Positions 8,660-50,240 of a DNA stretch of 56,195 nucleotides are shown piece after piece. A program made the position numbers and the translations under genes. The stretch is from a virus (lineage: Duplodnaviria; Caudoviricetes). The stretch's first letter is position 1. Every line of letters starts with the position of its first letter. The notes under the pieces are model-generated. The model made no database searches. It worked only from the letters and a program-made list of their open reading frames with translations, and was not told the origin of the DNA. Location of the stretch: positions 1 through 56,195 of the IMG/VR virus record IMGVR_UViG_3300030060_000209. One strand, given 5' to 3'.

Positions 8660-9547
8660 ATGGGATTTCTTGATGATCTTGTAAAAGTTGCTCTTCCTGC
8701 TGTTGCTGGTACTTTTCTTGGCCCCGTTGCTGGCAAAGCTTTGGGTGCTAGTGGCATAATGGGAAGCCCATTTATACAAAGCGCTTTAACATCTGGTGCC
8801 ATAGGTTTGTTAACAGGACAAAAGCCTAAAGATGCTCTTAAATCAGCGTTACTTGGTGGACTAGGACAATCAGTTTTTGGCGGCATGGGGCAAGCTGGAA
8901 ACATAGCTGATCAAGCTACAACTTCTACAAGTCTTCCTAATTTAATGGGAACTGGACAAGATCTTCAATTTATGGGTCAGGGAAATAAGGCATTAGACAC
9001 TGCTCAAAAAATAGCAGCAGCAACAGGCGGTGGCGGCGCAATAGAACCCACTGCTGCAAAAACAATGTCTGCTGAATTATTACAGGGTCTTGGATTTGCA
9101 GGTGATCCAGGTAAAGAAAATTTATTATTTAGACTCGCTAATACAAAAGTTGGAGAAGGTATTCTCGCGGGATTAGCAGCGCAAGCTGCGGATTCTTTAT
9201 TTGGTGGTGATGAAGATGAAGACACTAGAGGGGCATTTGAACGCCGACCCTATGCCGCTGGAGGCCCGGGCGGAAAGCTTGGCGGTATAAATTACAATCA
9301 AGGCGGTGTGGTTCAGTATTTCAATCAAGGTGGTGCGATGGATAATTATCCAGCAAATCCTCCTAGAAGAGATGGCCCTATTAATCCGTATGAGGGATCT
9401 GGAACTAAAGATGATGTGCCAGCACTATTAACGGCTGGTGAATTTGTCATGACTCGTGATGCTGTTGAAGGCGCGGGTGGAGGTGATGTAAATCGAGGTC
9501 TTAATCGAATGTACAGTATGATGGATAAATTTGAGGGGATGGCATAA
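8660..9547 (+). CDS. Putative DNA ejection/pilot protein
   Basis: G/A-rich hydrophobic N-terminus; GSGTKDDVPALLTAGEFVMT motif as seen in tape-measure/pilot proteins; YNQGGVV/FNQGGAM motifs. Confidence 0.6.
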   Translation: MGFLDDLVKVALPAVAGTFLGPVAGKALGASGIMGSPFIQSALTSGAIGLLTGQKPKDALKSALLGGLGQSVFGGMGQAGNIADQATTSTSLPNLMGTGQDLQFMGQGNKALDTAQKIAAATGGGGAIEPTAAKTMSAELLQGLGFAGDPGKENLLFRLANTKVGEGILAGLAAQAADSLFGGDEDEDTRGAFERRPYAAGGPGGKLGGINYNQGGVVQYFNQGGAMDNYPANPPRRDGPINPYEGSGTKDDVPALLTAGEFVMTRDAVEGAGGGDVNRGLNRMYSMMDKFEGMA

Positions 9548-10449
9548 TGTCTACACAAACAGTAGAATCAGTACAACGTCTAGCCCCTTATCTTGAGGGA
9601 CTTGAGCAAAGATTGCTTGGCACAGCATTTGGTGAGTTTAGTGGTGCAACGCAAACCAGTCCCGGTCTTCTTGATACGCCTCTTGCTCTTCCCACTCAAA
9701 AAGTAGCTGGCCTTGATCCCTTACAGCAACAAGCCTTTTCTATGGCACCCGGTATGGTTGGCTCATACGCTCCTTTTGTTGCGGGAGCATCTGGTCAGAC
9801 CCTTGGTGGACAAGCTGCTTTAGGCGGCGGTCTTGGGCTTCTATCAAGTCCTGCGGCGGCTGTTCAGCAGTACATGAACCCATACGAAAACTTTGTGATT
9901 GACGAGATTAACCGTCAGGCACAAATAGGTAAACAGAAAAGAGCGGCACAGGCTGTTCGATCTGGTGCTTTTGGTGGTTCAAGACAGGGTATCATGGAAG
10001 GAGAGGCAGAAGGGCGTAGATTAGCTGCTATAGGTGATGCACGACGTAAGGGCTTTGGTGACGCTTTAACAGCTTCTCAGAGGGCTGCACAGCTTATGGG
10101 CGGTATCGGACAGGCATTTGGCGGTCTTGCCAGTACAACGGCTGATTTAGGGCGTGTGCAGTCCGAGCTTGGTCGTGCTGATCTTGGTATGCTTTCACAG
10201 CTAGGCGAAACAGGACGTAACTTTCAGTCGCAGGTTCTTGAGGCACAACGTCAAAATCAAGTGCAAGCTGCTCAAGAGCCATTTACACGGTTGGAGATTG
10301 GTCAGAACCTTCTTAAAGGCATTCCTAGCGCGGGGTTATCTTCTACATTTAAAACTTCAACCACTCCAGCTACCAACCCGTTCTTGGCTGGAATTGGTGC
10401 ATACACTGCGCTTCAGGGTATTAAGCCTTCTGGCCCTGTAGGGAATTAG
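9547..10449 (+). CDS. Putative DNA ejection (internal virion) protein
   Basis: Q/A/G-rich, YMNPY..VID, GAFGGSRQGI motif, hydrophobic C-terminus. Confidence 0.65.
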   Translation: MSTQTVESVQRLAPYLEGLEQRLLGTAFGEFSGATQTSPGLLDTPLALPTQKVAGLDPLQQQAFSMAPGMVGSYAPFVAGASGQTLGGQAALGGGLGLLSSPAAAVQQYMNPYENFVIDEINRQAQIGKQKRAAQAVRSGAFGGSRQGIMEGEAEGRRLAAIGDARRKGFGDALTASQRAAQLMGGIGQAFGGLASTTADLGRVQSELGRADLGMLSQLGETGRNFQSQVLEAQRQNQVQAAQEPFTRLEIGQNLLKGIPSAGLSSTFKTSTTPATNPFLAGIGAYTALQGIKPSGPVGN

Positions 10450-10459
10450 GAGAGCGTAA

Positions 10460-12361
10460 ATGGCTATTGGAGATCCAATTAACGCTGGAATAGGCAGTTA
10501 TGATCCAACGAAAAATTATTTTGCACAACCTCAAAGACGAGGCGCTGGTTTATTAAGTCCTAGCGATCTAAATCTATCTACAGTTCCCGGTCAAAGTCAG
10601 ATGGATGCTTTAAACGCTATCCGTGAAAGATTGGGAATGCGACCTTTAGATCAAGGTTTAGGTTCTAAATTTTCTATAGCCCCTACAGGCATGACAAAGG
10701 GGCAAGCAAAACAACAACAGATGACTGTTGGTGAATATGACATTGGTAGAAAATTAGCTGCGTTAGACAGGCCAAACACAATGACGCAAGTGACTTCTGC
10801 GTTGCAAGATGATCCAGGAGATAGATTTCCTTTAGCTGATATTTTTGATGTTGAAGGTGGTGGCGGTCTTGGTGGAAGTAATGAAAACCAACCTCTCGTG
10901 TTTTCTGAAAGAGATCCGAACCTAGATGTTGATATTGGAGCCGCTGGTCTTGGCGTAGAGCCTCCTGCTGACAGTGGAGGATCTACTCCGTCCACGGCAA
11001 CCACTGGCGGCGCTGGTAGCGGCGAAGAGGCTGGTGGGCTTGGTGAGGCTAATGCAGATCAAGCTCTTGTGTTTAGTGGTACGTCTGAAGACGACAAGAA
11101 AAAAACTTCTACAGATCCGTTTGAAGCAGCTTTAGTGGAAGCTATGAAAGATTATGAAGACGCTAAAGCTGGAGAAGACACTGGCATTAAAGACATTGAT
11201 TACTATAAACAAAAATTTTCAGAGGCCACTGGCATAGACACATCTGGAAAAGTAGATAAATCACAAGCTCTGATGGCTTTTGGTTTAGCCCTTATGCAAA
11301 ACAAAGCTGGCAAAGGGTTTGATGTTGGTAATATATTAGGGGCAGTTGGAGCGGCTGGTGAAAAAGCTATGCCAGAACTTACGAGAGCGCGATCAGAAGC
11401 TCGTGCTGCTCAATTAGCTGGTGGTAAATATGCTCTTAATCAAATTGCAAAAGATAAAGCTGCGGAGGCGGCTATTCTGGCTGAAAAACGATCAAATATA
11501 CAAGAAATTAGAAAATTAAAAATGAGCGCTTTAGCAGATTCTGCTCTTAAACAACAAGAACATGAAAACAATATGAGAGTAAAAAGACTTGAAATTTCAG
11601 GAAAAATTGCAGAATCTGCTGCTAAAAGTAGAGAAGATTTAAATAAACTTTCAAATGAGTTCACTGGAGAAAAGGATTACAATCCAGTAGACACAAAGAA
11701 AAATATTAAAGTGCATGTTGCGAACAGAAAAAGTGATGGTGCTGAAATATTTACAAAGCCTTTAGCAGATGTTCCGTTAATAGCTAAAGGATATGCTGAT
11801 TCACTTGATGGATCTGCTTCAATAGATAAAATGATTAACTTGATAACAGAGGCTTCACAAGCTTCTGCAACTGGTGGTTTGGCAGGACAACAATTGTTTG
11901 AATTTATTAATAATAGGTCTGCTGCTTTTGGTTTAAATTTACTAGAAGACGAGAGTGGTAAAAAAGTCGGACCTGTGACCGAAGCAAATGCTATTAGAGA
12001 AAGACTTATTGCTCAATATAAAAGATTTTTAACACAAGAAACTGGAAACGGAATATCTAACACCGACGTTGAGAGATTAGCCAGATCTTTAGGAAGTATT
12101 GATTTCCTTACTAATCCGAATGAAGCCATAACAAAATTAAGAGAAACAAGAAGAATATTTGAATCTTCAACTAAAGCTTTTCAAACTGCTCTTATAGAAT
12201 TTTCTGATAAAGATAGATTTTTTAATGAAGAAATTTATGAAAAAACTCAACGAAAATTACAAGAAGCAGCTACAGGGGCGCTTTATGAAGGTCTTGGAAC
12301 AGAGTCTGCTAATATAACCACAGACCCAGACACTGGCGTAACAACCATAAAGCTTTCTTAG
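10460..12361 (+). CDS. Putative internal virion/ejection protein
   Basis: 633 aa, ALMAFGLALM segment, predicted coiled coil; podovirus ejectosome position. Confidence 0.55.
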   Translation: MAIGDPINAGIGSYDPTKNYFAQPQRRGAGLLSPSDLNLSTVPGQSQMDALNAIRERLGMRPLDQGLGSKFSIAPTGMTKGQAKQQQMTVGEYDIGRKLAALDRPNTMTQVTSALQDDPGDRFPLADIFDVEGGGGLGGSNENQPLVFSERDPNLDVDIGAAGLGVEPPADSGGSTPSTATTGGAGSGEEAGGLGEANADQALVFSGTSEDDKKKTSTDPFEAALVEAMKDYEDAKAGEDTGIKDIDYYKQKFSEATGIDTSGKVDKSQALMAFGLALMQNKAGKGFDVGNILGAVGAAGEKAMPELTRARSEARAAQLAGGKYALNQIAKDKAAEAAILAEKRSNIQEIRKLKMSALADSALKQQEHENNMRVKRLEISGKIAESAAKSREDLNKLSNEFTGEKDYNPVDTKKNIKVHVANRKSDGAEIFTKPLADVPLIAKGYADSLDGSASIDKMINLITEASQASATGGLAGQQLFEFINNRSAAFGLNLLEDESGKKVGPVTEANAIRERLIAQYKRFLTQETGNGISNTDVERLARSLGSIDFLTNPNEAITKLRETRRIFESSTKAFQTALIEFSDKDRFFNEEIYEKTQRKLQEAATGALYEGLGTESANITTDPDTGVTTIKLS

Positions 12362-12369
12362 GGGTCGTT

Positions 12370-15324
12370 ATGGGTGAAATAAACATACAACTTCCAAACG
12401 AAACTTTAAAATTTGAATTTGCTGGTGATAAGCCAACCATTGAAGAGCAATTTAAAATTTCCAATATCATTCGTGAAAAAAGAAGACAACTCAAAGTACA
12501 AGAGTCTGCTGGAAGATCTGCTAAACAAGAACAATTGTTTGATACTAAATCTGGTATTAAGGATGCTGGATTTCGTGCTGCTTTATCTGTCGCTGAAACT
12601 AATGAAGAGCAAGATGCTATCCTTAAAGAGAGATATGGTTTTGGAGAAGGTGATTTTACTCGTGATAAACGTGGTAGACTTGCGATCACTCAATCTGGCG
12701 GTCAAAAATTAGGTATTGATTTAGAAAAAGATACGCTTGTAGATGAAACAGGTTTCTCTCGTTATGATTTTGCTGATTTAGCTGGTATAGCTCCAGAAGT
12801 TATTGGAGGTGTTGGCGGTGCTATAGCTGGCATACCGCTTGGACCTGCTGGTATCATTGGTGGTTCTGTTCTTGGAGCTATGGGAGGCGCAGGGGCTGAA
12901 GAAGCTGGTGAAGCGTTACTTGGAGTTTCCAAACAAACTGGATCGGAAATAGCAAAGGACATAGCTGTTGAAGGCGCTATCACGCTTGCTGGAGAACTCA
13001 CATTTGGTTTAGCTGGAGTGGCTTTTAGAGCGGGTCGCAAAGGGCTTTCTGTGAAAAAATTACCAGATGAAGATGTAACGGCAATTGGTGAAGCTCTCAC
13101 ATACAAAATAAAAGATCCAACCACTGGCGAATTAATTGATGTTCCTATAACTCCAGAGCTTGGTGCTGTTGGCGCACCCGGACTTATTGCAAGACAAACA
13201 AAAATCATGGAGAGAGTTATTGGCTCTTCTGACCGTCTAAAAAACAATTATGATAATATGGGAAAAATTTTAGATGATTTTAGAGGTAGATCTAACGCCG
13301 CTAAAGCCTCAACAACAGAAGATACTGGTGAGGCAGTCCTTGACTCTGTTTTCAACGCAAATCAGGCGTTAGTTGCTAGTGAAAAAGCCGCAAGGGAGGC
13401 CGTAGTAAAAACTTTATCTGGAGCAACAGATCAATTCATGACAGCAGCTTCAAAAGGAGTTGATGTTGATGAGGAGGCGTTCAAAATACTTGCTGATGCT
13501 AGTAAAGGTTTTGATGACATTGCTGCAACTAAATTTAGTCAAATAGAAGATTTAGTTGGCTCCGCTACAGGAACAAAAAAATTTATTAATACATCAGCAT
13601 TAAAGGACATATCTAAACGTCTTGAGGATGAATATGGAGCCTCTATAGCCGCATCAAGATCTACGTCAGAATCAGTTAGAGAGAGCGTAGCTGGTGATGT
13701 CTCTGCCATCATTAACGGTATTAATGGTCTTGGTGACAAAACAGGTTTTCTACAGCTTTACAATTTACGCAAAGCATTAAACGATGGAAAAATGGCAACT
13801 AACTCAACCACTGGAGTTAGAGAGATACAGAAAGCCATTGATGAAATTGACCGAATGCTCGAACCTAAAATGTTAGAGTATTATGCAAAAGCATCGGCTG
13901 GCGCTCTTGATGGTCAAGCGTTAGACACTTTGCAATCAGCGGCTTCTAGTTTAGGAGCGGCTCGTGGATTTTTCAAAGATGGACAAACAGCCATTGACAA
14001 CTTGCAAGATGCAATAAGAATTAAAGATTTAGCTCAACGTGCTAGAGATGGAACTATACCACCAAATGTTGATTTTCTGTCTACCCTTGTTAAAAATGGA
14101 AAACCCGAATCATTGAAAAGAGCCATTAAAGTTGTTGAAGATTTTAGTGGAGCGGGACAAGCCGAACAATTGCGCGGTTTGGTTGCGACTCGTTGGTTGC
14201 AAGAAGCATTGAAAAGAACGATGCCTGATGGTGTTGACGCAGCTTCATTCTCTGGTAAGTCTTTTGCCAAATCAATTGATGATTTAGGCAATACCGCTGA
14301 TGTATTATTTGGTAGTCAAGTTGGACAAGTTCGTGCTTTAGCCAAACAAATAGAGAAAGCATCTTCATCAAACATGACAGAAGAAGCCATCCTTAGAGCC
14401 GTTCAAGAAGGAGGAGGTGAAGCTGGTGGAGTGGCAGGAATATTAAGATCTGTTAAAGAACAGCAAGATGCCTTGAATCAGTTCACGACTGATAGAACAT
14501 TAAGAAAATTATCTTCTGGTAACATCACTGCAATTGAAGCAGCAGAGTATGTTGCAAGTCCTAAATCACAACCAGAAACAATTCGTTCTGTTTTAAGTTT
14601 ATTAAGAAAACAGGGAGATGATGAAGCGGTTGATAAGATTCAATCTTTTTACATGAATAATATTCTTAAAGATTTTGGCGCAGATACTTTTGTTGATGGA
14701 AACGCAATCAAGACATTTGCAAAGAACTTTAATGAGGCTGGCAAGAGCGGTAAATTTAGAATAATTTTTGGACAAGAGATGGGTAAAGACATGGAAAAAT
14801 TTGGTCGTGTCCTTGCTGTTAATGCTAAAACAGCACAAGGCGGTGATCTCGTAGCTGCTAACATTGCTGCCAGTCCTTTGAATAACCTTGGGAAAATTGC
14901 AAAATATGGTTTGTTTACAAGGTTTTTAACTTCGGCTCCTTATTATAGACAAGTTTTAAATCAGTATGAGGCCTTATCAGGAAACTTGCCGCCAAAGAAA
15001 AAGTCAGAAATACTCGGCAAAATAATGAGTCAATTGTTTGTGCAAACACCCGGACAAATTACACAAGAGGCTGTCGATGAAGGCAACAGACAAATTGATG
15101 CTTTAATGAAAAACACTCAAGTCGGTCAACAATTGTCCGCAATCCGAAGTCAGATGACTCCACCAAACGTAGCATCTAGTCTTGGAGGCATAAACGTAAC
15201 ACAACCAACGGCTCCAGCAGGAACCAGTACAATTCGACAACAGGCAGCAGCGAACCCCGGTGTAGCTCAAACCTTGGGCATTAGAGGTCCAACGGCAGGT
15301 CTGTTAGGAACAGGGAACCCGTAA
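12370..15324 (+). CDS. Large internal virion/ejection protein
   Basis: 984 aa, Gly/Ala hydrophobic stretch (GGVGGAIAGIPLGPAGIIGG) then helical body; last of ejection cluster. Confidence 0.6.
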   Translation: MGEINIQLPNETLKFEFAGDKPTIEEQFKISNIIREKRRQLKVQESAGRSAKQEQLFDTKSGIKDAGFRAALSVAETNEEQDAILKERYGFGEGDFTRDKRGRLAITQSGGQKLGIDLEKDTLVDETGFSRYDFADLAGIAPEVIGGVGGAIAGIPLGPAGIIGGSVLGAMGGAGAEEAGEALLGVSKQTGSEIAKDIAVEGAITLAGELTFGLAGVAFRAGRKGLSVKKLPDEDVTAIGEALTYKIKDPTTGELIDVPITPELGAVGAPGLIARQTKIMERVIGSSDRLKNNYDNMGKILDDFRGRSNAAKASTTEDTGEAVLDSVFNANQALVASEKAAREAVVKTLSGATDQFMTAASKGVDVDEEAFKILADASKGFDDIAATKFSQIEDLVGSATGTKKFINTSALKDISKRLEDEYGASIAASRSTSESVRESVAGDVSAIINGINGLGDKTGFLQLYNLRKALNDGKMATNSTTGVREIQKAIDEIDRMLEPKMLEYYAKASAGALDGQALDTLQSAASSLGAARGFFKDGQTAIDNLQDAIRIKDLAQRARDGTIPPNVDFLSTLVKNGKPESLKRAIKVVEDFSGAGQAEQLRGLVATRWLQEALKRTMPDGVDAASFSGKSFAKSIDDLGNTADVLFGSQVGQVRALAKQIEKASSSNMTEEAILRAVQEGGGEAGGVAGILRSVKEQQDALNQFTTDRTLRKLSSGNITAIEAAEYVASPKSQPETIRSVLSLLRKQGDDEAVDKIQSFYMNNILKDFGADTFVDGNAIKTFAKNFNEAGKSGKFRIIFGQEMGKDMEKFGRVLAVNAKTAQGGDLVAANIAASPLNNLGKIAKYGLFTRFLTSAPYYRQVLNQYEALSGNLPPKKKSEILGKIMSQLFVQTPGQITQEAVDEGNRQIDALMKNTQVGQQLSAIRSQMTPPNVASSLGGINVTQPTAPAGTSTIRQQAAANPGVAQTLGIRGPTAGLLGTGNP

Positions 15325-15948: not shown

Positions 15949-15992
15949 TATACTAATTCCCATTGTTAACCATTAATGTCCATATTTATACC

Positions 15993-16373
15993 ATGTACAA
16001 CTATAAACGCAAGACAAACAAGTATGGTGCCAGAAAGACAACTTTCATGGGAATCAAGTTTGATTCCAAGTGGGAGGCAGAGCGTTGGGGCGAACTCACA
16101 GCTATGGAAAAGGCTGGTTACATAACAGACCTACAAAGACAAATCTCATATGAGATTGTGGTCAACGATCAAAAGATTTGTAAATATGTGGCTGACTTTC
16201 GATATAATAAAGTAGATGAATACGGTAGTCTTGAAGAGGTTGTTGAAGATGCCAAGGGCGTGGAAACCGCTGAATTTAAACTCAAAAAGAAACTCATGAA
16301 AGCCGTTCATGGAGTTGAGATTTACCTCTCTAAAAATAATAATAACAATTTTCTCAAAATTCCCTTGACTTGA
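15993..16373 (+). CDS. DUF1064-type PD-(D/E)XK endonuclease (resolvase-like)
   Basis: NKYGARKT..GIKFDSKWEA..YVADFRY..VEDAKGVET. Confidence 0.85.
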   Translation: MYNYKRKTNKYGARKTTFMGIKFDSKWEAERWGELTAMEKAGYITDLQRQISYEIVVNDQKICKYVADFRYNKVDEYGSLEEVVEDAKGVETAEFKLKKKLMKAVHGVEIYLSKNNNNNFLKIPLT

Positions 16374-16393
16374 AAAGATTGCATGCTTACCTT
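16365..16393 (+). promoter_or_regulatory. sigma70-type promoter of replication operon
   Basis: TTGACT-N17-TACCTT; spacer carries TGAAAAGATTGCA palindrome variant. Confidence 0.55.
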
Positions 16394-16434
16394 TCAGTTG
16401 TATCTAGCGATATTCAACTCTGAAAGGAAAAGCA

Positions 16435-16866
16435 ATGAACGCTATTACTTTGAATAATGATCTAACTGCTTTGTTTGACAAGCGTGAAGATCTCAAATCT
16501 CAAATTGACGATCTGCAAAAAGAATTGAAGATCGTTAACAATTCTCTCAAAGACCAGTTTGAGGAAACTGCCAAGATGCAACTTGCCCAACAAGGCAAGG
16601 ATTTTGGTCAGACTTCTATGAACAGTGGTGATTTCAAAGTCACTGTTGATTTTCGTAAGAAGGTCTTATGGGATGAAACTATTCTGTTGCGTGTTCTTAA
16701 CTCTTTGGATGAGGACACGGCTAGGCATCTTGCCACTGTGAAATACAGTGTGCCGGAAGCAAAGTTTCAGAATGCCACACCAGATCTCAAAGCAGCATTG
16801 TCTGAGGCTCGTACCGTTGAGTTGCAGGGCATTTCTGTTGATCTAAAAAGAAGGGAGGAAAGTTAA
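16435..16866 (+). CDS. Hypothetical coiled-coil protein of recombination module
   Basis: SD AAGGA; typical neighbour of Sak4-like genes. Confidence 0.6.
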   Translation: MNAITLNNDLTALFDKREDLKSQIDDLQKELKIVNNSLKDQFEETAKMQLAQQGKDFGQTSMNSGDFKVTVDFRKKVLWDETILLRVLNSLDEDTARHLATVKYSVPEAKFQNATPDLKAALSEARTVELQGISVDLKRREES

Positions 16867-18692: not shown

Positions 18693-18696
18693 TACG

Positions 18697-32636: not shown

Positions 32637-35285
32637 ATGACAAGTTTCATGGGGCCAATGGCACCTCCGCCGCCAGCACAGCCGCAGCCACAGGCGTTAG
32701 ATATTCGTACAGATCCTAACCAGAGGCAACAATTCAAACAGTTTATGAGGCAGCGCATGATGCCGATGACATCTGCGCCGATAGCACAGCCCCCTATGCA
32801 GCCCATGATGCAGTCTCCAGCTATGTTTAACATGGGTGGTGGAGTTGATATTTTTGATCCCATGTATTCAGCGCCGATGATGGCACCTCCAGCCCCTATG
32901 GGTTTTGATGATGGCGGTGCAGTTCCATCTACTTTACCTAGATCAAAAAGAGATGCCATAGCACAAAAGGTAGCCGAAATGATGGCTATTAGTGCTGAAA
33001 GAGTTAGGGCGGCTCAACAGAATGCTGAGTACAATCGTCTTTTGAGAGACCAAGATGCAATAGATCGACAAGTGGCGCTTGATAGGTTAAAGGCGGATCA
33101 AGCAGAGTCTCGACAAAATATGACGTTAGACTCGATTCTTTCTGATATTGATTACGAAAGAAGAGGTTTATTAAGAAAAGAAGACGGCGGTGCAGTTCCA
33201 CCGCGTCGTGCTGACATTGGTGGTCAGGATCACATGTTGTCGTATATCACGCCAGATGAAGCTGATATTCTAAAAGCTTTAGGTGGATCTGGCGAAGCTG
33301 GTCCTATGGGCATTCCTGCTTTTAGGGCTGATCCCGGTCAAATGGCTGAAGCTCAAGAAAGTCTTGGTCAGACTGATTATGGCGGCGGTGATGACGGTGG
33401 CGATAGCGGTGACACTTATTCAGACATGGGCATGTCTCCGGGTCGTTCACAGGCACAGTTTGGCACAACTGAATTTGCAGGAAAGTCTGAGCAAGAAGCG
33501 CAAAACATAGTAGATTCAGGTGGTGGTTCTGATGAGGCGCAAGCTGTTCAGCAATCAATAGCCACGCAACAGAGAGCAGACGCACAAAGGGCGGCGGCGG
33601 CAGAGGCAGCGCGGCAAACACAAATCAGAAACCAGCAAATTGCTCAAGACAATATAAACAGGACTCGTGACAGGGTTCAGGCTGGTCTTGCACAGAGGAA
33701 CGTAGGTGTAGGTACGACTCCAGAGGTCAATTTAACTGTTACTAGAAATCCCACGCCCACAACTTTTAATGTTGCAGATACGTTAGGCACTGGCATTGCG
33801 CCTACTGTACAAGCTGGTCCTCGTGGGCCTACGGATGGAGATGTTGATAGCCTTGATCTTCTTGATTTAGATAATTTGTTAGATCTGCAAGGCCCACCAT
33901 CATACTCTCAAATACAAAGAGTAAAAGCTGGCCCAGGTAGATCAGGTGTAACTGCGGCACTGGATTATCCTGGTGTTAATAGAGATACGTTAGCTACGGG
34001 AGTTATTCCTCGTGATCAAAGCCAAGTTCTTTTAAGTGATTTGACTGCGGATCCATCAGGCACTGAAAGATTTGGTGCAGACTATTTACCTGATTTAGCA
34101 GCGTCTGATATGGCTCGTATGGCTACGGCTGATGCAGGCATGATTACGGATGCGTCTCCAAGGAGCAATCAAGTAGTTCTTGGTGGCGGCACAGATGATA
34201 TGGGTTCAGGCGTTCCTCTTGGTGGGTCTTATGATCGTTTTGCACCTGCCGCACCAACAGGCACAACAACCACAACGACTCCTGCACAAGACGTTTTTGG
34301 CATGGAAGATGAGTATCTTGATGAGGATATTGCTGCTGGCTTTGGTCAGTATGATGGCGGCTATCGTGATTCGGAAGGGCGGAGTCGGTCATTTGGTGAT
34401 ATAAGCGGTCCCGGTGGCGGTCCCGGACGTAGTGGTTTAAGTACATTTGCTGACAGACAGCAACGAGCGCAAGATTACGCCAAAGAAATGGGTTATGACC
34501 TTACTGATCGCTCCATGTACAAAGAGGGTGCGGAGCGTGGCTTTAGTGGCATTACACAAGAGCAGTTAGATGAATTAAAAGATCGTGCCGCAGGGTCAAT
34601 ATTTGGTGATACGTTTATGAATACTCCAAGAAACATTAGTAACATATTAGAAGATAAGAGAGCCACGGGTATTTATACGAATCCTGATGGTACGGTTCGC
34701 GGTGTAACAGGTTTACCGGATCCTGACGCTTTTGGCGGTTTGATGCAGAGCGCAGTTAATTTCCTTGGTGGATTTATGCCCAACTTTATTGGTGAGACAT
34801 ACACTGGAACAGGTCCAAATCCTTTTGATCGTGGTCAAGATCCGGGCGGCGGTGGTGAAGATCGGCCTGTGAAAGCTCCAACAGATCCATGTCCAGATGG
34901 ATTTGTAATGAAGAACGGTGCTTGCACACCTATAGATACTGGTAGCGGTGTTCCTGATCAGATAGGCGGAATAGGCACAGGACAGCCTCCGCCACCTCCT
35001 GCTCCAGTTATTGTTCCGTCACCGCGTCAACCTGTTCAGACTAATTTGCAGGGTCCAGTTGGTTATGGTAGCCCGATAGCTGGGCAGATGGCACCGTCTG
35101 TGGCTAGTAATGCTGCTTTGTATCAGCAGATGTTAAATCAACAGGCCATGAACGCAGGCAGAAACATGCCTGTTGGTACTATGCCTTTACCAGCGCCTAC
35201 GAGGTTACAACAGGGCGGACCTGTATCCTCTAATCTGGATAGAGCAGCGGATAACTTTCTAAAGGCATTGATGCCAGCGGCTTAG
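32637..35285 (+). CDS. Large low-complexity putative internal virion protein
   Basis: 882 aa P/G/D/Q-rich; DHMLSYITPDEADILKALGGSG..GIPAF motif; four xxxGGxV motifs. Confidence 0.6.
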   Translation: MTSFMGPMAPPPPAQPQPQALDIRTDPNQRQQFKQFMRQRMMPMTSAPIAQPPMQPMMQSPAMFNMGGGVDIFDPMYSAPMMAPPAPMGFDDGGAVPSTLPRSKRDAIAQKVAEMMAISAERVRAAQQNAEYNRLLRDQDAIDRQVALDRLKADQAESRQNMTLDSILSDIDYERRGLLRKEDGGAVPPRRADIGGQDHMLSYITPDEADILKALGGSGEAGPMGIPAFRADPGQMAEAQESLGQTDYGGGDDGGDSGDTYSDMGMSPGRSQAQFGTTEFAGKSEQEAQNIVDSGGGSDEAQAVQQSIATQQRADAQRAAAAEAARQTQIRNQQIAQDNINRTRDRVQAGLAQRNVGVGTTPEVNLTVTRNPTPTTFNVADTLGTGIAPTVQAGPRGPTDGDVDSLDLLDLDNLLDLQGPPSYSQIQRVKAGPGRSGVTAALDYPGVNRDTLATGVIPRDQSQVLLSDLTADPSGTERFGADYLPDLAASDMARMATADAGMITDASPRSNQVVLGGGTDDMGSGVPLGGSYDRFAPAAPTGTTTTTTPAQDVFGMEDEYLDEDIAAGFGQYDGGYRDSEGRSRSFGDISGPGGGPGRSGLSTFADRQQRAQDYAKEMGYDLTDRSMYKEGAERGFSGITQEQLDELKDRAAGSIFGDTFMNTPRNISNILEDKRATGIYTNPDGTVRGVTGLPDPDAFGGLMQSAVNFLGGFMPNFIGETYTGTGPNPFDRGQDPGGGGEDRPVKAPTDPCPDGFVMKNGACTPIDTGSGVPDQIGGIGTGQPPPPPAPVIVPSPRQPVQTNLQGPVGYGSPIAGQMAPSVASNAALYQQMLNQQAMNAGRNMPVGTMPLPAPTRLQQGGPVSSNLDRAADNFLKALMPAA

Positions 35286-35288: not shown

Positions 35289-36773
35289 ATGGATGATGTC
35301 CTTGATATAGCTACCGAGTTTCTGACTGATGCAGAGCTTGAGTCTCTTGGCAAGCATTTAGACAAGTACAAAGAGTTGCATGAGCGAGAAGAGCTTCAGA
35401 CAAGCTTTCTTGATTTTGTAAGGCATGTCTGGCCTTCATTCATAGCTGGTAGTCATCACAAGATTTTTGGTGAAAAGCTGGAGCGTGTGGCAAGGGGCGA
35501 GTTAAAGCGTCTGATTGTCAACATGCCGCCAAGACATACGAAGTCCGAGTTTGCGAGTTATCTGTTTCCTGCTTGGGTCATGGGACAGAGGCCAGAAACA
35601 AAGATTATTCAGGCAACGCACACGGCGGAGTTGGCTGTAGGTTTTGGTCGAAAGGTCAAGAACCTGCTTGATAGTGAGATCTATCGTGATGTTTTTCCTG
35701 ACATACAATTAGCTAGAGATGCGAAGGCCAGTGGTCGTTGGTCTACGGATATGGGTGGAGAGTATTACGCTGTTGGTGTAGGCGGTGCGCTTGCTGGTCG
35801 TGGTGCTGATCTGTGTATTATTGACGATCCTGTATCAGAACAGGATGCGTTATCACCAGCCGCGCTGGATAATATTTACGAATGGTACACATCAGGACCG
35901 AGACAGCGACTACAACCGGGCGGATCAATAATCATCGTGATGACACGATGGAGCATCCGCGATTTGACAGCGAAGGTTTTGCAGAAGCAAGCCGAGGGCG
36001 GAGCGGATCAATGGGAGGTTGTGGAGTTTCCAGCGATATTTCCCGATACAGACAACGTGTTGTGGCCCGAGTTCTGGAGCAGGGACGAGCTAGAAGGCGT
36101 TAGGGCTTCCATACCTGTAGCCAAGTGGAACGCACAGTATCTTCAGAATCCTACTGCTGAAGAGGGTGCGATTATTAAAAGGGAGTGGTGGAATGTTTGG
36201 GATCATGATGATCCACCTGTCGTTGATTACGTCATCCAGTCGTATGACACCGCCTTCACCAAATCCGAAAGGGCCGATTACTCGGCTATTACGACTTGGG
36301 GCGTGTTTTATCCTGACGAGGGTGATGAGGCTGCGATCATATTGCTGGATTCAGAAAAAGGTCGATGGGAGTTTCCAGAGCTTAAAGACGCGGCAATGCG
36401 CTTGTATGAAGAATTTGAACCAGACATGGTGTTGATAGAGCAAAAGGCATCTGGAACACCGTTAACGCAGGATTTGCGTAAGATGGGTATTCCTGTGTCT
36501 GGTTTTACGCCGGGTCGTGGAGCAGATAAGTTTTCTCGTATGAACGCCTGTGCGCCTGTGTTTGAGTCAGGTATGGTCTGGTGTCCAGAGACTAGATGGG
36601 CAGAAGAGGTTATTGAGGAATGTGCGTCATTTCCCAATGGAGAGCATGATGACTTGGCGGATAGCATGACACAGGCTATACTGCGTTTTAGGCAGGGCAG
36701 TTTTATACGCACTCGTTCTGATTACGAAGACGATGATTTAGCAACTTACAGGCGTAGCAGGGAGTATTACTGA
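35289..36773 (+). CDS. terL: Terminase large subunit
   Basis: NMPPRHTKS, IIDDP, VMTRW, QSYDTA, IEQKASG, FPNGEHDDLADS. Confidence 0.97.
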   Translation: MDDVLDIATEFLTDAELESLGKHLDKYKELHEREELQTSFLDFVRHVWPSFIAGSHHKIFGEKLERVARGELKRLIVNMPPRHTKSEFASYLFPAWVMGQRPETKIIQATHTAELAVGFGRKVKNLLDSEIYRDVFPDIQLARDAKASGRWSTDMGGEYYAVGVGGALAGRGADLCIIDDPVSEQDALSPAALDNIYEWYTSGPRQRLQPGGSIIIVMTRWSIRDLTAKVLQKQAEGGADQWEVVEFPAIFPDTDNVLWPEFWSRDELEGVRASIPVAKWNAQYLQNPTAEEGAIIKREWWNVWDHDDPPVVDYVIQSYDTAFTKSERADYSAITTWGVFYPDEGDEAAIILLDSEKGRWEFPELKDAAMRLYEEFEPDMVLIEQKASGTPLTQDLRKMGIPVSGFTPGRGADKFSRMNACAPVFESGMVWCPETRWAEEVIEECASFPNGEHDDLADSMTQAILRFRQGSFIRTRSDYEDDDLATYRRSREYY

Positions 36774-37078
36774 TGGCTGACGAGGACAAAAAATTCAGGC
36801 ACCCAGCAGGTGTGGCTATACGGAAAGGCTTGGATGCTATTCGTTATAAGCGTTCTGATGAGGGCAAGGCAGAGAAAAAAGCTCGTAAGGAGCATAATAA
36901 AAAATTTGGTCCTACCGATAAAAAGACTAAAAGAAAGCTTCGTAGTGACGCTAAGAAGTCTGATGCTGCAAAGGGTAAGACAATGCGAGAAAGAGGCTCT
37001 TATTCTTATTATGAAGAGATGAATCATGGCGGCGCTGTTATGAAGGGCCGTGGCGGTAAGTTTAAGGGGATTAGCTAA
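36773..37078 (+). CDS. Small basic GG-motif protein
   Basis: K-rich; ends MNHGGAVMKGRGGKFKGIS. Confidence 0.65.
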   Translation: MADEDKKFRHPAGVAIRKGLDAIRYKRSDEGKAEKKARKEHNKKFGPTDKKTKRKLRSDAKKSDAAKGKTMRERGSYSYYEEMNHGGAVMKGRGGKFKGIS

Positions 37079-37521
37079 TGGCACCTCGCATGGGAAAAAA
37101 ATTACCTCCTAGTCTTAAAAAGACTAAGCAGACTGGCAAACGGAAACAGCCTCGTATGGTTCCTGGTGGTAAGCTTGGTGCAACTCCAAAGGCTCAAAAG
37201 TCCACTGCTCAAATACGCAGACTGACCGTTGACGGTAAGGCTGTAACTGACGCTCCTTTTGTTCCTGATACTCGTAAAGGTAAATTTAAAAACATTGAGA
37301 TTGGCATGAAGGATATGCCAGCAGGTTATAATGGGGGCGGCAAAGTAATTGGTAAGAAAAAAGTCATTATTGGCCCTAATTCAAATTTAACAGATGAAGA
37401 GCTTGATCGTTATATTGCACAGCTTAGAGGTGAAGTAAAACCTGTTAAGAAGAACAGGGGCGGAGCGATTAAAGGCTTCAGCCCCATAGCCCGTCCACAA
37501 CGATTTAAAGGAGTATTCTAA
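37078..37521 (+). CDS. Small basic GG-motif protein
   Basis: YNGGGKV, KNRGGAI, ends RFKGVF. Confidence 0.65.
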   Translation: MAPRMGKKLPPSLKKTKQTGKRKQPRMVPGGKLGATPKAQKSTAQIRRLTVDGKAVTDAPFVPDTRKGKFKNIEIGMKDMPAGYNGGGKVIGKKKVIIGPNSNLTDEELDRYIAQLRGEVKPVKKNRGGAIKGFSPIARPQRFKGVF

Positions 37522-38138
37522 TGGAAGGCGGATTTTCACGGAAAAGAAAGCTTGGTAAAGCTTTGTCTGGCGGTTTGTTAGGTCAATTGTTGGGAGAGGC
37601 TGGCAATACTATATCAGACGCTGACAGAGCTAGGTTGCAAGCGATGATGGGTTCCGCAGGTGCGGGGGCTGGAGCAGCCGCAGCTTTAGGAGAAACTGGA
37701 AAGTCTATATCAAATGCTGATAGGGCTAGGCTTCAAGAACTTTTAGGCTCTATGACAAGTCCACGGCGTAAAACTGACAGACAGCTTATGCAGTTTGAAA
37801 AAGGCGGCAAAGTCAAGAAACCTAAAACACTTCCAAAGCCAAAGCCAAAGATTGGTGATCGTAACGAAATGGGTCCAATCTACACAGACACTAAAACTGG
37901 TAAGAAAGTTAAGCGCCTCAATAAAGGCGGTGGCCTTAATGCTGCAATTAATAGAGTTAAAAAGGCACAAGGCATGGAAAAAGGCGGCGCGGCATTTCCT
38001 GATCTGACAGGTGACGGTAAGGTTACGCAGAAGGATATTCTTAAAGGCCGTGGTGTTGATCTTAAACAAGATGGCGGCGCAGTTCGTGGTATGGGCAGGG
38101 CTTATATGGGTGCGCCTAGAAAAGTTAAGATAAGGTGA
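37521..38138 (+). CDS. Basic GG-motif protein with EF-hand-like loop
   Basis: FEKGGKV, LNKGGGL, MEKGGAA, KQDGGAV; DLTGDGKVTQKD; internal IS(D/N)ADRARLQ repeat. Confidence 0.65.
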   Translation: MEGGFSRKRKLGKALSGGLLGQLLGEAGNTISDADRARLQAMMGSAGAGAGAAAALGETGKSISNADRARLQELLGSMTSPRRKTDRQLMQFEKGGKVKKPKTLPKPKPKIGDRNEMGPIYTDTKTGKKVKRLNKGGGLNAAINRVKKAQGMEKGGAAFPDLTGDGKVTQKDILKGRGVDLKQDGGAVRGMGRAYMGAPRKVKIR

Positions 38139-38258
38139 TGTTATTTAACTTTGGTGTTATAGTGCGAGAGAGGCTGGCTTATGGCTTTGCGGTCATGCTT
38201 GATGCCCTTCTCGTGACTGCGCCGAAGTCAGTCTCACCTAAATCGGAAAGGACCAGAC

Positions 38259-40697: not shown

Positions 40698-40951
40698 TGT
40701 CTGCAAGTTCTGTACGTTCAAAATTTATGGAAGTTGAAAAAGAAAAAAAGCGTCAAACTCGTTTGAAGGAAGCTGGTGTTGTTGCTGCTCCTGTTAAGGA
40801 AGAAGCTCCAAAACCTTTTAAGCCTGTTCGTGCTAGAAATGAAGATGGCACATTGAAGTCTGATGACAAATCAACTCCTAATGTGAATGAGGCTTGGGTA
40901 GGCGGAAAAGCACCCAAGAAAAAAGCTTCATCTAAAAAGAAGAAGTCATGA
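40694..40951 (+). CDS. Small basic hypothetical protein
   Basis: RARNEDGTLKSDDKSTPNVNEAW motif. Confidence 0.65.
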   Translation: MMSASSVRSKFMEVEKEKKRQTRLKEAGVVAAPVKEEAPKPFKPVRARNEDGTLKSDDKSTPNVNEAWVGGKAPKKKASSKKKKS

Positions 40952-41163
40952 CTGACAAAAAAGATACACCTCCGTTGAAAGATCTAATGCTGGGTCTTAG
41001 CGATGAGCAGATAAAGATAATCAAGGAGGCTATAGAAGCGGGTAAGAAAGGCTTTAAGTATGATACGAAGACTGGTCAACGCGATTTTGGATTTAGTAAA
41101 GGCGGTGGTGTCTGCCGTGGGCAAGGTCGTGTCTCGCGTAAAAGAGAGTTTAAAATCTATTAA
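40948..41163 (+). CDS. Small basic GG-motif protein
   Basis: FSKGGGVCRGQGRVSRKREFKIY. Confidence 0.6.
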   Translation: MTDKKDTPPLKDLMLGLSDEQIKIIKEAIEAGKKGFKYDTKTGQRDFGFSKGGGVCRGQGRVSRKREFKIY

Positions 41164-43176: not shown

Positions 43177-43373
43177 TGGACGCAATTACACTTGCGGAAT
43201 ATTTGTTAAAGAACATACGTCAAGACAAAGCTGATTATACACAGCGTCTTGCGGATGGTGCGATAGAGGATCACTCCGACTATCGGTTCATGGTGGGTCA
43301 AATACGCGGCTTGACTCAATGTGAGGAACATATAAAGACCGCGATGAAAGGCATAGAGCTAGAAGATGGCTAA
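43176..43373 (+). CDS. Hypothetical protein preceding GroES
   Basis: YRFMVGQIRGL motif. Confidence 0.65.
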   Translation: MDAITLAEYLLKNIRQDKADYTQRLADGAIEDHSDYRFMVGQIRGLTQCEEHIKTAMKGIELEDG

Positions 43374-43854
43374 AAAACTATTCGTACCAGACAGGTACGC
43401 GAATAAACAAAAATCAAAACCTCCAGTTTCAGAAGTACCAAAAGCAATATCAAAGGGTTTTGAGTCTCCAGAAGAAAACAAACAAAATACAGAAGACCCA
43501 TCTAAGATGGAGGCTTCTGCTATTGATAGGTTGCCTAATCCTGTGGGTTATAGGCTGCTTGTTATTCCCTATTACATGAAACAGAAGACTGCTGGGGGTA
43601 TTATTATTCCTGAAACTATCCGTGAGCGTGAAAATCATGCAACTGTTGCAGCTTATGTTGTGAAGATGGGGCCAGATGCTTACTGTGATGCCAATAAATT
43701 CCCAACAGGAGCTTGGTGTGATGAGAAATCATGGGTATTAATGGGCAGATATGCTGGAAATAGGTTTAAAGTGGACGGTTTAGAAGTTAGGCTTATAAAT
43801 GACGATAATGTTATAGCCACGATACTTGACCCCGCTGATATTTCTTATGTATAG
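43366..43854 (+). CDS. groES: Co-chaperonin GroES (Cpn10)-like protein
   Basis: PVGYRLLV...KTAGGIIIP..VVKMGPD..RYAG..EVRLINDDNVIA. Confidence 0.88.
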   Translation: MAKKLFVPDRYANKQKSKPPVSEVPKAISKGFESPEENKQNTEDPSKMEASAIDRLPNPVGYRLLVIPYYMKQKTAGGIIIPETIRERENHATVAAYVVKMGPDAYCDANKFPTGAWCDEKSWVLMGRYAGNRFKVDGLEVRLINDDNVIATILDPADISYV

Positions 43855-47948: not shown

Positions 47949-48233
47949 ATGGCTCGTGCGAGGGATAAACAACCTCCTAAAACAAAAAAGTATTTCCGCT
48001 CCACTAAGTCTGGAGCGGGAATGACTAAAGCTGGTGTCGCTCGATATAGACGCGAAAATCCGGGTAGTAAGTTAAAAACTGCTGTTACTGGCAAAGTTAA
48101 AAAGGGTAGTAAAGCAGCAAAAAGGCGTAAATCATTTTGCGCTAGATCTGCTGGTCAGATGAAAAAATTTCCAAAGGCGGCAAAGAATCCAAATTCACGT
48201 TTGCGTCAGGCAAGGAGAAGGTGGAAATGTTAA
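47949..48233 (+). CDS. Small very basic protein (DUF6321-like)
   Basis: AKRRKSFCARSAGQMKKFP.AAK.PNSRLRQARRRWKC. Confidence 0.65.
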   Translation: MARARDKQPPKTKKYFRSTKSGAGMTKAGVARYRRENPGSKLKTAVTGKVKKGSKAAKRRKSFCARSAGQMKKFPKAAKNPNSRLRQARRRWKC

Positions 48234-48502
48234 GTGCTAACTTTGTAGCAGGAACGATCTTTGTTGCTTTTATAGGTGTATGTGTAACTGGTCTTACATG
48301 GATTTCTTCAACTCTTATCACAGTTGATAAAAACGTAGCTGTTATGGCGGCAAAAATTGATGCTAATAATGAAAAGATAGATCAGCTTCATGACATGATC
48401 AGACCCATGTGGGAAGATTTTACAGGGAGAACATATGATGGCAATCTCGCGCAGTTCAATTCCCAAACAAATTTCAAACCCACCGTCAAAAAGGAGTTCT
48501 AA
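48227..48502 (+). CDS. TM plus coiled-coil hypothetical protein
   Basis: Hydrophobic N-terminus. Confidence 0.55.
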   Translation: MLSANFVAGTIFVAFIGVCVTGLTWISSTLITVDKNVAVMAAKIDANNEKIDQLHDMIRPMWEDFTGRTYDGNLAQFNSQTNFKPTVKKEF

Positions 48503-48785
48503 GGTGCCAAAAGACGCTTGTTATAGAAAGGTAAAAGCCCGATACAGGGTTTTTCCAAGCGCTTATGCTTCAGGCGCTATCGCAAAATGCAGAAAGGTTG
48601 GTGCCGCTAATTATGGCACTGGCGGCAAGAAGAAAAAAGCCAAGAAAAAAGCTCTTGGTGGTGCAGTTACAATGAATAATGGAGGGGCAGTTACAAGGGC
48701 AAAACGGCCTTCTAGCAATCCAAATGTTGCTAGAGGTTGCGGTGTTGTCATGAGTAACAAAAGAAAAGCAACTAAATACTCGTAG
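48435..48785 (+). CDS. Small basic GG-motif protein
   Basis: KDACYRKVKARYRVFPSAYASGAIAKCRK; ALGGAV, MNNGGAV, ARGCG. Confidence 0.65.
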   Translation: MMAISRSSIPKQISNPPSKRSSKVPKDACYRKVKARYRVFPSAYASGAIAKCRKVGAANYGTGGKKKKAKKKALGGAVTMNNGGAVTRAKRPSSNPNVARGCGVVMSNKRKATKYS

Positions 48786-49289: not shown

Positions 49290-49568
49290 ATGGCGGTGAG
49301 GAAAACCAAAAGTGGGTTGGCACTCAAGAGATGGTTTAAGGAAGACTGGAAGGACGTTTCCACGGGGAAACCGTGTGGGCGTCGCAAAGGTGAAAAACGG
49401 GGTACTCCATATTGCCGCCCCACCAAACGTGTCTCTTCTAAGACCCCAAAAACCACCAAAGAAATGACAGCCGCTGAAAAGCGCAGTAGGGTATCGCAAA
49501 AAAAGAGGCTTGGGCAACCAGCAGGTAAACCAAGAAGGGTGAAGGCATTAAAGAGAAAGAAGAAATAA
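49290..49568 (+). CDS. Small basic protein (DUF5872-like)
   Basis: LKRWFKEDWKDV..GKPCGR..PYCRP. Confidence 0.65.
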   Translation: MAVRKTKSGLALKRWFKEDWKDVSTGKPCGRRKGEKRGTPYCRPTKRVSSKTPKTTKEMTAAEKRSRVSQKKRLGQPAGKPRRVKALKRKKK

Positions 49569-49591
49569 AAGACATTATTGAAAACTGGATA

Positions 49592-50047
49592 ATGACAGAT
49601 TTAAGTGTGGTAGATCCTGATTTGGGTTTTGCTCCTTGTCCTTATGCAAAAAAAGCATTTATAGATAAAAAACTGTTGGTTATTGAGTGTCTTGATAGAG
49701 AGGATTTGTGGAAAACTATATCAGGTCGATGCAAAAATTTTAGCGACAAACATTCTGTTATAATTTGTTTTGAAGAGGAGCCATCACAGACATATGAAGA
49801 AGTTGAAGCAGCTTGTATAGCCATGAATGAATGGTTTGCTTACAATAAAATGGATGTTTGGTTGCTTGCTTTTCAAACAAATTTTACGATGGTATTTATA
49901 CAAAGACTGTCAGAATTAGATGATGCTAGTCAAAGGCTAGAAAAAATGGGATACTATAAAAACTATAATACAGAAGACTATGTTAATCTAATCTTAAACC
50001 GTAGATACAGGAGACATGAAAATGCCAGGTGCGAAAAAACAAGCTAG
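49592..50047 (+). CDS. Hypothetical protein
   Basis: PCPYAKKA..FIQRLSELDDAS..LEKMGYY; true start may lie slightly upstream. Confidence 0.6.
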   Translation: MTDLSVVDPDLGFAPCPYAKKAFIDKKLLVIECLDREDLWKTISGRCKNFSDKHSVIICFEEEPSQTYEEVEAACIAMNEWFAYNKMDVWLLAFQTNFTMVFIQRLSELDDASQRLEKMGYYKNYNTEDYVNLILNRRYRRHENARCEKTS

Positions 50048-50240
50048 ACGTATGCGTGGCGGTGGTGCAACAGCCCCTAAAAAAATGATGGGTGGCGGCG
50101 CAGCTAAAAAAGCCAGACGTATGCGTGGCGGTGGGAAAGTTGCCCCTAAAAAGATGATGGGCGGCGGTGCTACAAAAGCAGTATCTCCTCGTAAACGCAT
50201 GGCTATGGGCATGATGCGTGGCGGTAAGGTCAAGAAATAA
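50016..50240 (+). CDS. K/R/M/G-rich microprotein built of GG-motif repeats
   Basis: 69-nt tandem duplication (50041-50109, 50110-50178); SD GGAG. Confidence 0.65.
   Translation: MKMPGAKKQARRMRGGGATAPKKMMGGGAAKKARRMRGGGKVAPKKMMGGGATKAVSPRKRMAMGMMRGGKVKK

Follow-up and report, generated by a model that had tools for sequence, protein, structure and literature searches.

A recurrent Gly-Gly motif on eight phage proteins

The stretch analysed here (the window) is the entire IMG/VR record IMGVR_UViG_3300030060_000209, 56,195 bases in length, and our subject is a short Gly-Gly (GG) peptide motif that recurs on eight of its predicted proteins, commonly just ahead of a distinctive C-terminal tail. 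The record has a completeness rating of 100% and its plausible genes all lie on the plus strand. Because the portal protein is 46-52% identical to those of the Pelagibacter phages HTVC023P and HTVC027P, of phage 023Pt_psg01 and of the lake phage DSL-LC04, the genome is, judged by these similarities, that of a complete HTVC023P-type marine podophage; megablast of positions 32637-40697 gave no nucleotide-level match among named phages. A first-pass annotation had noticed the pattern [FYLMK]-x-x-G-G-x-[VIAL] on about eight unrelated proteins and had proposed a capsid-targeting or scaffold-docking signal, or else a double-glycine protease site, that routes cargo into the prohead. We refer to the eight proteins as carriers, name them by the first base of their genes and use the letters A to G for the tail classes defined below.

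Two carriers are large and acidic. The 8660 protein (8660..9547; 295 amino acids (aa), isoelectric point (pI) 4.7, Gly-rich) stands at the head of a row of ejection-protein-like products and holds YNQGGVV at residue 212 (9293-9313) and, 9 residues further on, FNQGGAM at residue 221 (9320-9340), followed by the end region PPRR…DDVPALLTAGEFV. This end region matches PHROG 5448 ('tape measure', E value 4.7e-5) and is 69-100% identical among the 120 matches listed of 1887 database proteins, those 120 being named 'hypothetical protein' only; the DSL-LC04 homologue has the same layout. The 32637 protein (32637..35285; 882 aa, pI 4.5), encoded just upstream of the large terminase, carries three motifs in its N-terminal part at residues 64, 90 and 181 (32826-32846, 32904-32924 and 33177-33197) and a C-terminal LQQGGPV (35205-35225) that leads into the tail …NLDRAADNFLKALMPAA (class F). 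No Pfam, PHROG or NCBIfam family matched this protein, whose homologues of 683-1704 aa retain motif copies and the class F tail.

Three of the smaller carriers are encoded between the large terminase and portal genes. The first, the 36773 protein (36773..37078; 101 aa, pI 10.2), has its motif at 37019-37039 and ends in …MNHGGAVMKGRGGKFKGIS (class A), and an ESM Atlas search with it returned viral hypothetical clusters only, with scores of about 0.90. It is followed by the 37078 protein (37078..37521; 147 aa, pI 10.9), with YNGGGKV at residue 84 (37327-37347), KNRGGAI at residue 125 (37450-37470) and then the tail KGFSPIARPQRFKGVF (class B), and by the 37521 protein (37521..38138; 205 aa, pI 10.7), in which four motif copies (37794-37814, 37917-37937, 37974-37994 and 38064-38084) accompany an EF-hand-like loop, DLTGDGKVTQKD (37974-38050), and the end …KQDGGAVRGMGRAYMGAPRKVKIR (class C); tblastn of the latter protein against named phages gave no match. 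Two genes after the portal lies the gene for the 40948 protein (40948..41163; 71 aa; motif at 41092-41112), which ends in …FSKGGGVCRGQGRVSRKREFKIY (class D). The 48435 protein (48435..48785; 116 aa, pI 11.2) begins with a small 'PSAYA'-type domain, to which alone PHROGs 727, 38880 and 3477 match, and continues with KALGGAV and MNNGGAV (48648-48668 and 48672-48692) and the tail …ARGCGVVMSNKRKATKYS (class E); its start codon is uncertain, some relatives starting at residue 24. Lastly, the 50016 protein (50016..50240; 74 aa, pI 12.0, 22% Gly), directly upstream of an SU10-type adaptor gene, has counterparts with repeated …GG… units at the same position in DSL-LC04 and IMG/VR relatives. Six of the eight carriers rank among the ten most basic of the 89 plus-strand proteins, and the summed net charge of nine small head-region proteins is +198. 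From their composition and the lack of family matches, the small carriers look disordered. The product of 41163-41480 also has an EF-hand/dockerin-like loop, DLDDDGTVTDEE (Pfam EF-hand_5, E value 0.0026, below the cut-off), and the loop DKNKDGKISGEDF, which resembles those of the 37521 and 41163 proteins, recurs in tail-bearing proteins of relatives.

Every peptide listed in the first-pass annotation was found in the gene to which it had been assigned, as were the tails RGQG..FKIY, RGCG..TKYS, FKGVF and FKGIS and the five M(R/M)GG copies of the 50016 protein. The last residue of FNQGGAM falls outside the annotation's own final class, and one further match, MVPGGKL (37156-37176, in the 37078 gene), was missing from the list. 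The suggestion that the carriers are unrelated does not hold fully, as the six small basic carriers share alignable, homologous end modules.

We then compared the motif counts with those in proteins that had each been shuffled internally, such that the Gly content per protein was kept. First, the pattern occurs 28 times in the 89 proteins (18,135 aa) versus 9.47 ± 3.02 times after shuffling (maximum 20; none of 300 shuffles reached 28). Second, the eight carriers account for 21 occurrences versus 2.27 ± 1.43 (none of 1000 shuffles reached 21); these carriers were picked after the fact, and the whole-proteome figure is therefore the fair one. Third, a stricter pattern, set after viewing the data, gave 15 occurrences versus 0.75 ± 0.81. 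Independently of how the motif is defined, Val stands two residues after GG in 29 of 179 cases (2.6 times background). Gly content, named in the first-pass annotation among the explanations that would refute its proposal, thus fails to account for the frequency of the motif. The other 81 proteins are at the shuffle level (7 observed versus 6.70 ± 2.72, with 149 of 300 shuffles reaching 7), so that their 7 matches, among them those in the terminase, the portal, the GroES-like protein and a membrane protein, seem to have arisen by chance or for structural reasons. The first-pass annotation had not noticed the motif in the replication enzymes, and indeed none was found in the helicase, the primase, the Sak4-like protein or the Cas4-like nuclease open reading frame (ORF; 20769-21575); one match in the replication region, MDTGGGV, belongs to a small DUF6511-like ORF (20621-20863) that overlaps the start of the Cas4-like nuclease ORF.

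Two further observations concern the motif. The GroES-like protein (43366-43854) has a 55-residue N-terminal extension and shows KTAGGII at the place expected of the mobile loop, which probably fits the pattern for an unrelated reason. The Gly codons of the 21 carrier instances favour GGC (23 of 42, versus 27% of all Gly codons); a DNA-level element was considered and rejected, as the flanking codons vary and no nucleotide signal was found.

Tail classes in relatives and their genomic place

A scan of IMG/VR with the portal protein yielded 604 related stretches, of which we kept the best 80, comprising 24 with 87-99% and 56 with 65-69% portal identity. Among 845 unique ORFs from these 80 contigs, 121 fall into seven C-terminal tail classes: class A (…GGAVMxGRGxKFKGxx) and class G (…RGGGAAxxGTKFxGxx), with 28 unique ORFs each and alignable as one family; class B (…FSxIARPQRFxGVF, 19 ORFs); class C (…RGMGRAYxGxPRKVKIR) and class D (…RGQGRVSRKRxFKxY), with 13 each; class E (…GCGxVMSNRRKxTKxS, 8 ORFs); and class F (…GGxV…NLDxAADNFLKAL…, 12 ORFs), which is found on homologues of the 882-aa protein. 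In 117 of the 121 ORFs, GGx[VILMA] lies within the last 45 aa. A logo built from 324 unique GG contexts of 235 unique tail-bearing small proteins gave the consensus Φ-x-x-G-G-x-V (Φ being Met, Tyr, Phe or Leu, with Lys also common): Val at +2 after GG accounts for 57% (12.4 times background), Met, Tyr and Phe together for 52% at -3, where Lys also occurs, and Ala or Lys directly follows GG. The motif is placed just before the basic C-terminal tails (…RGxG…KFxGxx-end and variants), in 0-6 copies per protein, and the commonest spacing of successive copies is 9 residues (80 cases).

The tails are the conserved part of otherwise hypervariable small proteins. Measured as identity to the window residue, conservation over the last 25 aa versus the rest of the protein was 0.61 versus 0.17 for the 36773 family (n = 16), 0.69 versus 0.33 for the 37078 family (n = 22) and 0.69 versus 0.30 for the 37521 family (n = 15). 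Terminase and portal of one relative, L008, share 98-99.6% identity with those of the window, the 37521 homologue only 57%. That the tails were kept where the bodies have diverged beyond recognition points to selection on the tails, and the pattern persists in relatives down to 65% portal identity.

One kind of tail is borne by many bodies. BLASTP groups the bodies of 81 unique class A proteins into 32 clusters. Back-translated and matched exactly, the class A pattern was found in 97 IMG/VR stretches; of 79 newly fetched loci with it, 77 have a homologue of the terminase and/or the portal within 4 kb. Searched with an A/G tail profile, 1.84 billion proteins yielded 148 representatives, 27-267 aa long, and in 147 of them the tail lies no more than 2 residues from the C-terminus. 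A word-indexed search for the tail in longer proteins gave 172 matches, and the 120 of these that were listed are 71-241 aa long and include no Pfam domain and no informative name. Since the matches are terminal and on small domainless proteins, we conclude that the module is strictly terminal and not on enzymes. Body modules are exchanged as well, in that …DLTGDGKVT..DIL… (EF-hand-like) and …KGFSKLPE.VQ..M… each pair with tail C or tail G and are joined to it at the motif.

The genomic place of the classes is fixed. Classes A, G and C occupy the gap between the terminase and portal genes, where 71 of 118 ORFs of at least 50 aa have a recognised tail and 5 of the 32 remaining unique ORFs carry tail variants that the class patterns had missed. 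Class D (22 occurrences) is restricted to relatives whose portal identity is at least 85% and always lies no more than 1.2 kb downstream of the portal; relatives below 85% have class B just after the portal, where the tail of the 37078 protein is borne by a different body. Class E lies further downstream and class F upstream of the terminase. Contigs that are 90-95% alike were found in metatranscriptomes (two runs and one uncertain), covering only parts of the terminase and portal genes.

Two further conserved families occur between the terminase and portal genes in relatives (e.g. L038:2523-2942 and L008:9087-9998), an acidic one of about 139 aa that ends in …AYEAGGPMTDYDDIDEMEPLEGGSKDIF (16 unique sequences) and one of about 305 aa that ends in …VVIEGGKD (6 unique sequences); both have GG near the C-terminus and neither is encoded in this phage. 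In relative L054 a class B tail gene (12433-12805; TTG start at 12467, with AAGGAG 8 nucleotides upstream) overlaps, in a different frame, nearly the entire homologue of the window's 40694 gene (12433-12741), and the same overlap recurs in other relatives below 85% portal identity, such as L051 and L036. Because both frames encode sequences conserved elsewhere, this arrangement looks like a real overlapping gene pair.

Among named phages, DSL-LC04 has the motif on counterparts of the carriers (15 occurrences versus 6.8 after shuffling, a count that 1 of 300 shuffles reached). In Planktothrix phage Pag-Yong1, whose portal is 39% identical, two proteins of the capsid-adaptor interval have the motif and a basic tail, and RGxG-type tails occur on four proteins of the cultured phage HTVC023P, encoded at 18717-19322, 21655-22392, 32480-32863 and 33143-33508 of its genome.

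Possible roles of the motif and tails

Because the module is terminal, under selection and borne by changing bodies, because its genes stay beside the portal and adaptor genes and because it is shared with two ejection-type proteins, our leading though still tentative reading is that motif and tail form a docking tag of virion-internal proteins, akin to that of phage T4 but C-terminal. One to several copies of Φ-x-x-G-G-x-V, often 9 residues apart, would lead into the basic tail and together with it make up a docking module, carried by fast-evolving, small, very basic proteins and by the two large acidic ejection-type proteins. This module would bind a conserved acidic component of the procapsid, so that the carriers would be built into the head before DNA packaging and would exit with the DNA at infection, their bodies thereby being free to vary. 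Candidate partners are the N-terminal part of a scaffold-like protein, the N-terminus of the portal, where 100 aa carry a net charge of -23, and the inner face of the highly conserved capsid protein. The first of these refers to a 325-aa protein encoded before the capsid genes, which has an acidic first 100 aa (net charge -19), a Gln-rich middle and a basic end, is helical in appearance and looks, from its sequence, like a scaffold. The targeting signal proposed in the first-pass annotation is partly supported: a conserved terminal module on hypervariable head-region proteins is what such a tag is expected to look like. The sequences show that the module exists, is enriched, terminal and conserved and is joined to many different bodies; presence in the virion, the binding partner and ejection are inferred.

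Terminal targeting tags on phage internal proteins are an already known concept. T4 internal proteins are small, basic and present at about 300 copies each, their bodies are poorly conserved among relatives, and a 10-residue targeting sequence is necessary and sufficient for loading into the prohead (PMC9026906). The likeness is to T4 IPI, IPII, IPIII and Alt, divergent small basic head proteins with a common short terminal peptide; here seven tail classes cover 121 of 845 unique ORFs and class A alone is borne by at least 32 bodies, but at the C-terminus. The T4 tag, by contrast, comprises about 10 residues at the N-terminus, directs proteins to the scaffolding core and is cut off by the prohead protease gp21, whereas the tails described here come in about seven classes, contain Gly-Gly and go without a recognisable protease, with no sequence relationship between the two. 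A second likeness is to gp6.7 and gp7.3 of phage T7, which are small, Lys-rich, encoded just upstream of the portal gene and have GG near the C-terminus; according to the T7 record, gp6.7 is injected from the virion and gp7.3 is needed for infectivity and tail-associated. The T7 proteins have neither the Φ-x-x-GG-x-V motif with an RGxG…KFxG tail nor the hypervariability, and no homology was seen, so that the likeness is one of position and composition. Encapsulin cargo peptides, in turn, are short C-terminal peptides on different folded enzymes that dock inside an HK97-fold shell. They share with the present case a C-terminal peptide common to different proteins, and the capsid protein here is of the HK97 type, but the cargo there consists of folded enzymes and the carriers here are small and domainless (27-267 aa). 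The wider idea of a virion cargo-loading system, with which the first-pass annotation had ended, therefore does not hold in a general, encapsulin-type form, the tail being seen on small domainless proteins and, among the 148 representatives and the 120 matches listed, on no enzymes or folded cargo. We found no description of the motif or the tails in the literature searched.

Several observations weigh against a docking tag. In the cultured phage HTVC023P the original pattern is not enriched (10 occurrences versus 8.6 after shuffling; 109 of 300 shuffles reach it), and the regions examined in CRP-902 (a Roseobacter phage) and RW (a Caulobacter phage), which have related portals, hold no such tails. 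The tail was found only on small proteins without known domains (all 120 matches listed of 172 and all 148 representatives, the longest of which has 267 aa), the motif also occurs internally and at N-termini, and one shared receptor does not require several distinct tail classes. Hypervariable small genes within structural modules can moreover be non-structural 'morons'. Finally, the literature, as far as its texts were available, yielded no virion proteomics for HTVC023P-type phages.

In a bolder version, the tails would be a C-terminal sorting code, with about seven classes as addresses, each of which would direct a rapidly changing set of small basic proteins to one procapsid site (scaffold core, portal or shell); Φ-x-x-GG-x-V would then be the common hinge or handle, possibly trimmed by an unrecognised kind of protease. 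We consider this version unlikely.

Of the alternatives to docking, the one that survives best, though we hold it unlikely, is that the small basic carriers are DNA-condensing or charge-neutralising 'phage protamines' whose tails bind DNA and whose motif is a flexible hinge. Their extreme basicity, the net charge of the nine head-region proteins and the RG/RGG-like elements within the tails would all suit such a role, and for T4 internal proteins an interaction with DNA was long assumed (PMC9026906). By contrast, the two large proteins and DSL-LC04 show the same motif in an acidic setting, which argues that it contacts protein rather than DNA, and the exact conservation of the extreme C-terminus in distinct classes exceeds what charge neutralisation needs. 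In tailed-phage assembly, internal proteins are placed in the procapsid before DNA enters, so that a docking step would be needed anyway.

A double-glycine protease site was the other possibility raised at the outset, and a protease that frees the tails or chops the small proteins into peptides now seems quite improbable to us. Such trimming would be akin to that of adenovirus core-protein precursors or T4 internal proteins, and Gly-Gly precedes the cut made by the adenovirus, African swine fever virus and ubiquitin-like proteases. GG is nearly invariant before every tail class, the carriers are mosaics of short motif-bounded modules reshuffled between proteins, the 50016 protein is for the most part five M(R/M)GG units in a row and some relatives' gap proteins end two residues after GG (…VVIEGGKD-end). 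No matching enzyme came to light, however. In agreement with the first-pass annotation, no prohead protease was recognised with PHROGs, Pfam, NCBIfam or two predicted folds; the family scans covered 89 of 89 proteins with PHROGs, 81 of 89 with Pfam and 20 with NCBIfam, and a remote homologue or a host protease could escape such hidden Markov model scans. The two head-region candidates read otherwise: the scaffold-like 325-aa protein has no invariant Ser or Cys among 29 sequences, and the 194-aa protein weakly resembles capsid decoration proteins. The predicted fold of the latter (predicted local distance difference test (pLDDT) 66) gives weak matches nearly all of which are phage capsid decoration or cement proteins, the best in Foldseek being the TW1 stabilising protein (E value 8.6e-3), and with VIA-align (best Z 5.5) capsid accessory proteins fill 13 of the top 14 rows. 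The model of the 153-aa (44800) protein has a pLDDT of 44 and is unusable. The capsid protein has no copy of the motif.

The residues around GG bear on the same point. GG-cutting enzymes owe their specificity mainly to residues before the cut, which a small or unconstrained residue follows. Here the most conserved residue is the Val at +2, on the far side, the hydrophobic residue stands three before the first Gly and the residue that directly follows GG varies (A, K, E, S, V…), a pattern atypical of such enzymes. As residues are conserved on both sides of GG and Val at +2 most strongly, the motif fits a binding or structural element better than a cleavage site. Adenovirus core-protein precursors offer a parallel for processing, being very basic, small and DNA-associated, with Gly-Gly sites for a cysteine protease. 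Very basic small proteins are common to both, and the M-R-G-G units of the 50016 protein resemble the adenovirus sites, but the hydrophobic residue of the other carriers is one position further from GG, Val dominates after GG and library scans recognised no such cysteine protease here. The docking model does not need GG cleavage, which is unsupported.

About as improbable, in our estimate, is that the carriers are non-virion, hypervariable 'moron' proteins that are produced in the infected cell and attach by their constant tail to a conserved target of host or phage origin, a chaperonin for example. They do form a hypervariable locus inside a conserved module. The GroES mobile loop binds chaperonin, and the KTAGGII of the GroES-like protein, at the expected mobile-loop place, makes the motif class resemble a chaperonin-binding loop; the residues after GG (mostly A-V or K-V) are, on the other hand, of low hydrophobicity for such a loop. 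Against this reading, the carrier genes keep their places next to the portal and adaptor genes in relatives, the motif is common to the large ejection-row proteins, and the carriers parallel the injected and tail-associated T7 proteins in position and composition. That the pattern has no specific function and reflects recent duplication of small low-complexity genes of Gly/Lys-rich composition is highly improbable, since composition is ruled out by the within-protein shuffles, since tails conserved where bodies are unrecognisably diverged demand selection and contradict equal rates in tail and body, and since the pattern is kept down to 65% portal identity and partly in Pag-Yong1 at 39%, even though classes A and G are alignable, so that some carriers are paralogues, and the motif was defined after viewing the data.

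If the docking reading is true, short-tailed marine phages would provide a new form of terminal targeting, with a C-terminal, multi-class Gly-Gly tag. Should the sorting code hold as well, it would be the first case among short-tailed phages of capsid targeting by C-terminal tags of several classes, and the set of proteins injected into SAR11-type hosts could be read from metagenomes. HTVC023P-type phages are reported to be the most abundant known marine viral group (preprint 10.1101/2019.12.14.876532), and the capsid protein of vSAG 37-F6, an uncultured member of the group, falls in the dominant cluster of the Tara Oceans viral metaproteomes (PMC5490008). Hardly any structural protein of this group has been characterised. 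With the tails as loading tags, a simple sequence rule would identify the proteins carried into hosts and the hypervariable portal-side locus would be explained, and the tag could serve to bring foreign proteins into capsids of this kind. Because HTVC023P and HTVC027P are in culture, the claim can be tested.

Genome layout and neighbouring genes

Assignments from PHROGs, Pfam and NCBIfam give a podophage gene order. Tail-fibre-like genes (119-6239) are followed by a virion structural protein (6429), the row of large uncharacterised, ejection-protein-like proteins (8660-15324) and a lysozyme (15326). Replication and recombination genes come next (Sak4-like, helicase, Cas4-like nuclease and primase-helicase), within a region (15963-27741) of a complete genome in which PHROGs and Pfam recognised no DNA polymerase; its 392-aa (25089) and 224-aa (26286) proteins had no family match. 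The annotations of HTVC023P and DSL-LC04 each include a DNA polymerase, unlike this phage. The small terminase gene (27806) precedes an AIG2/gamma-glutamyl-cyclotransferase-like gene (29648) and an Amidoligase_2 gene with a C-terminal winged-helix part (30455), the pair spanning 29648-31648. AIG2-like/amidoligase pairs have reportedly been proposed to modify proteins or to make peptide-like products, and we considered a link between this pair and the Lys-rich, GG-containing proteins. The link was dropped, as the close relative L008, which lacks the pair at the corresponding position, has identical class A and class D tails, and as the annotation of HTVC023P includes no amidoligase.

Downstream lie the gene for the 882-aa protein without family (32637), the large terminase (35289), the three small gap genes (36773, 37078 and 37521) and the portal (38259), which is followed by small genes. 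After the GroES-like gene (43366-43854) come those for the 325-aa, 153-aa and 194-aa proteins (43826, 44800 and 45278) and for the major capsid protein (45875; Pfam Phage_capsid_4, E value 1.3e-12, HK97 type), then further small genes and two SU10-type adaptor-like genes (50240 and 51645). The capsid protein is 84-99% identical across relatives, and no significant match among PDB sequences was obtained for the 43826, 44800 and 45278 proteins, the portal or the capsid protein.

Two very basic small proteins without the motif are encoded among the carriers (47949-48233 and 49290-49568), one with DUF6321 (pI 12.0, net charge +31) and one with DUF5872 (pI 11.6, net charge +28); in other phages these domains are fused into large proteins (PHROGs 727 and 3477). 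At the other end of the genome, about a dozen small genes (119-5139; products of 84-174 aa) are mostly tail-fibre-like, six of them matching PHROG 11355, and the array has the look of a cassette that encodes fibre parts, either alternative or stacked.

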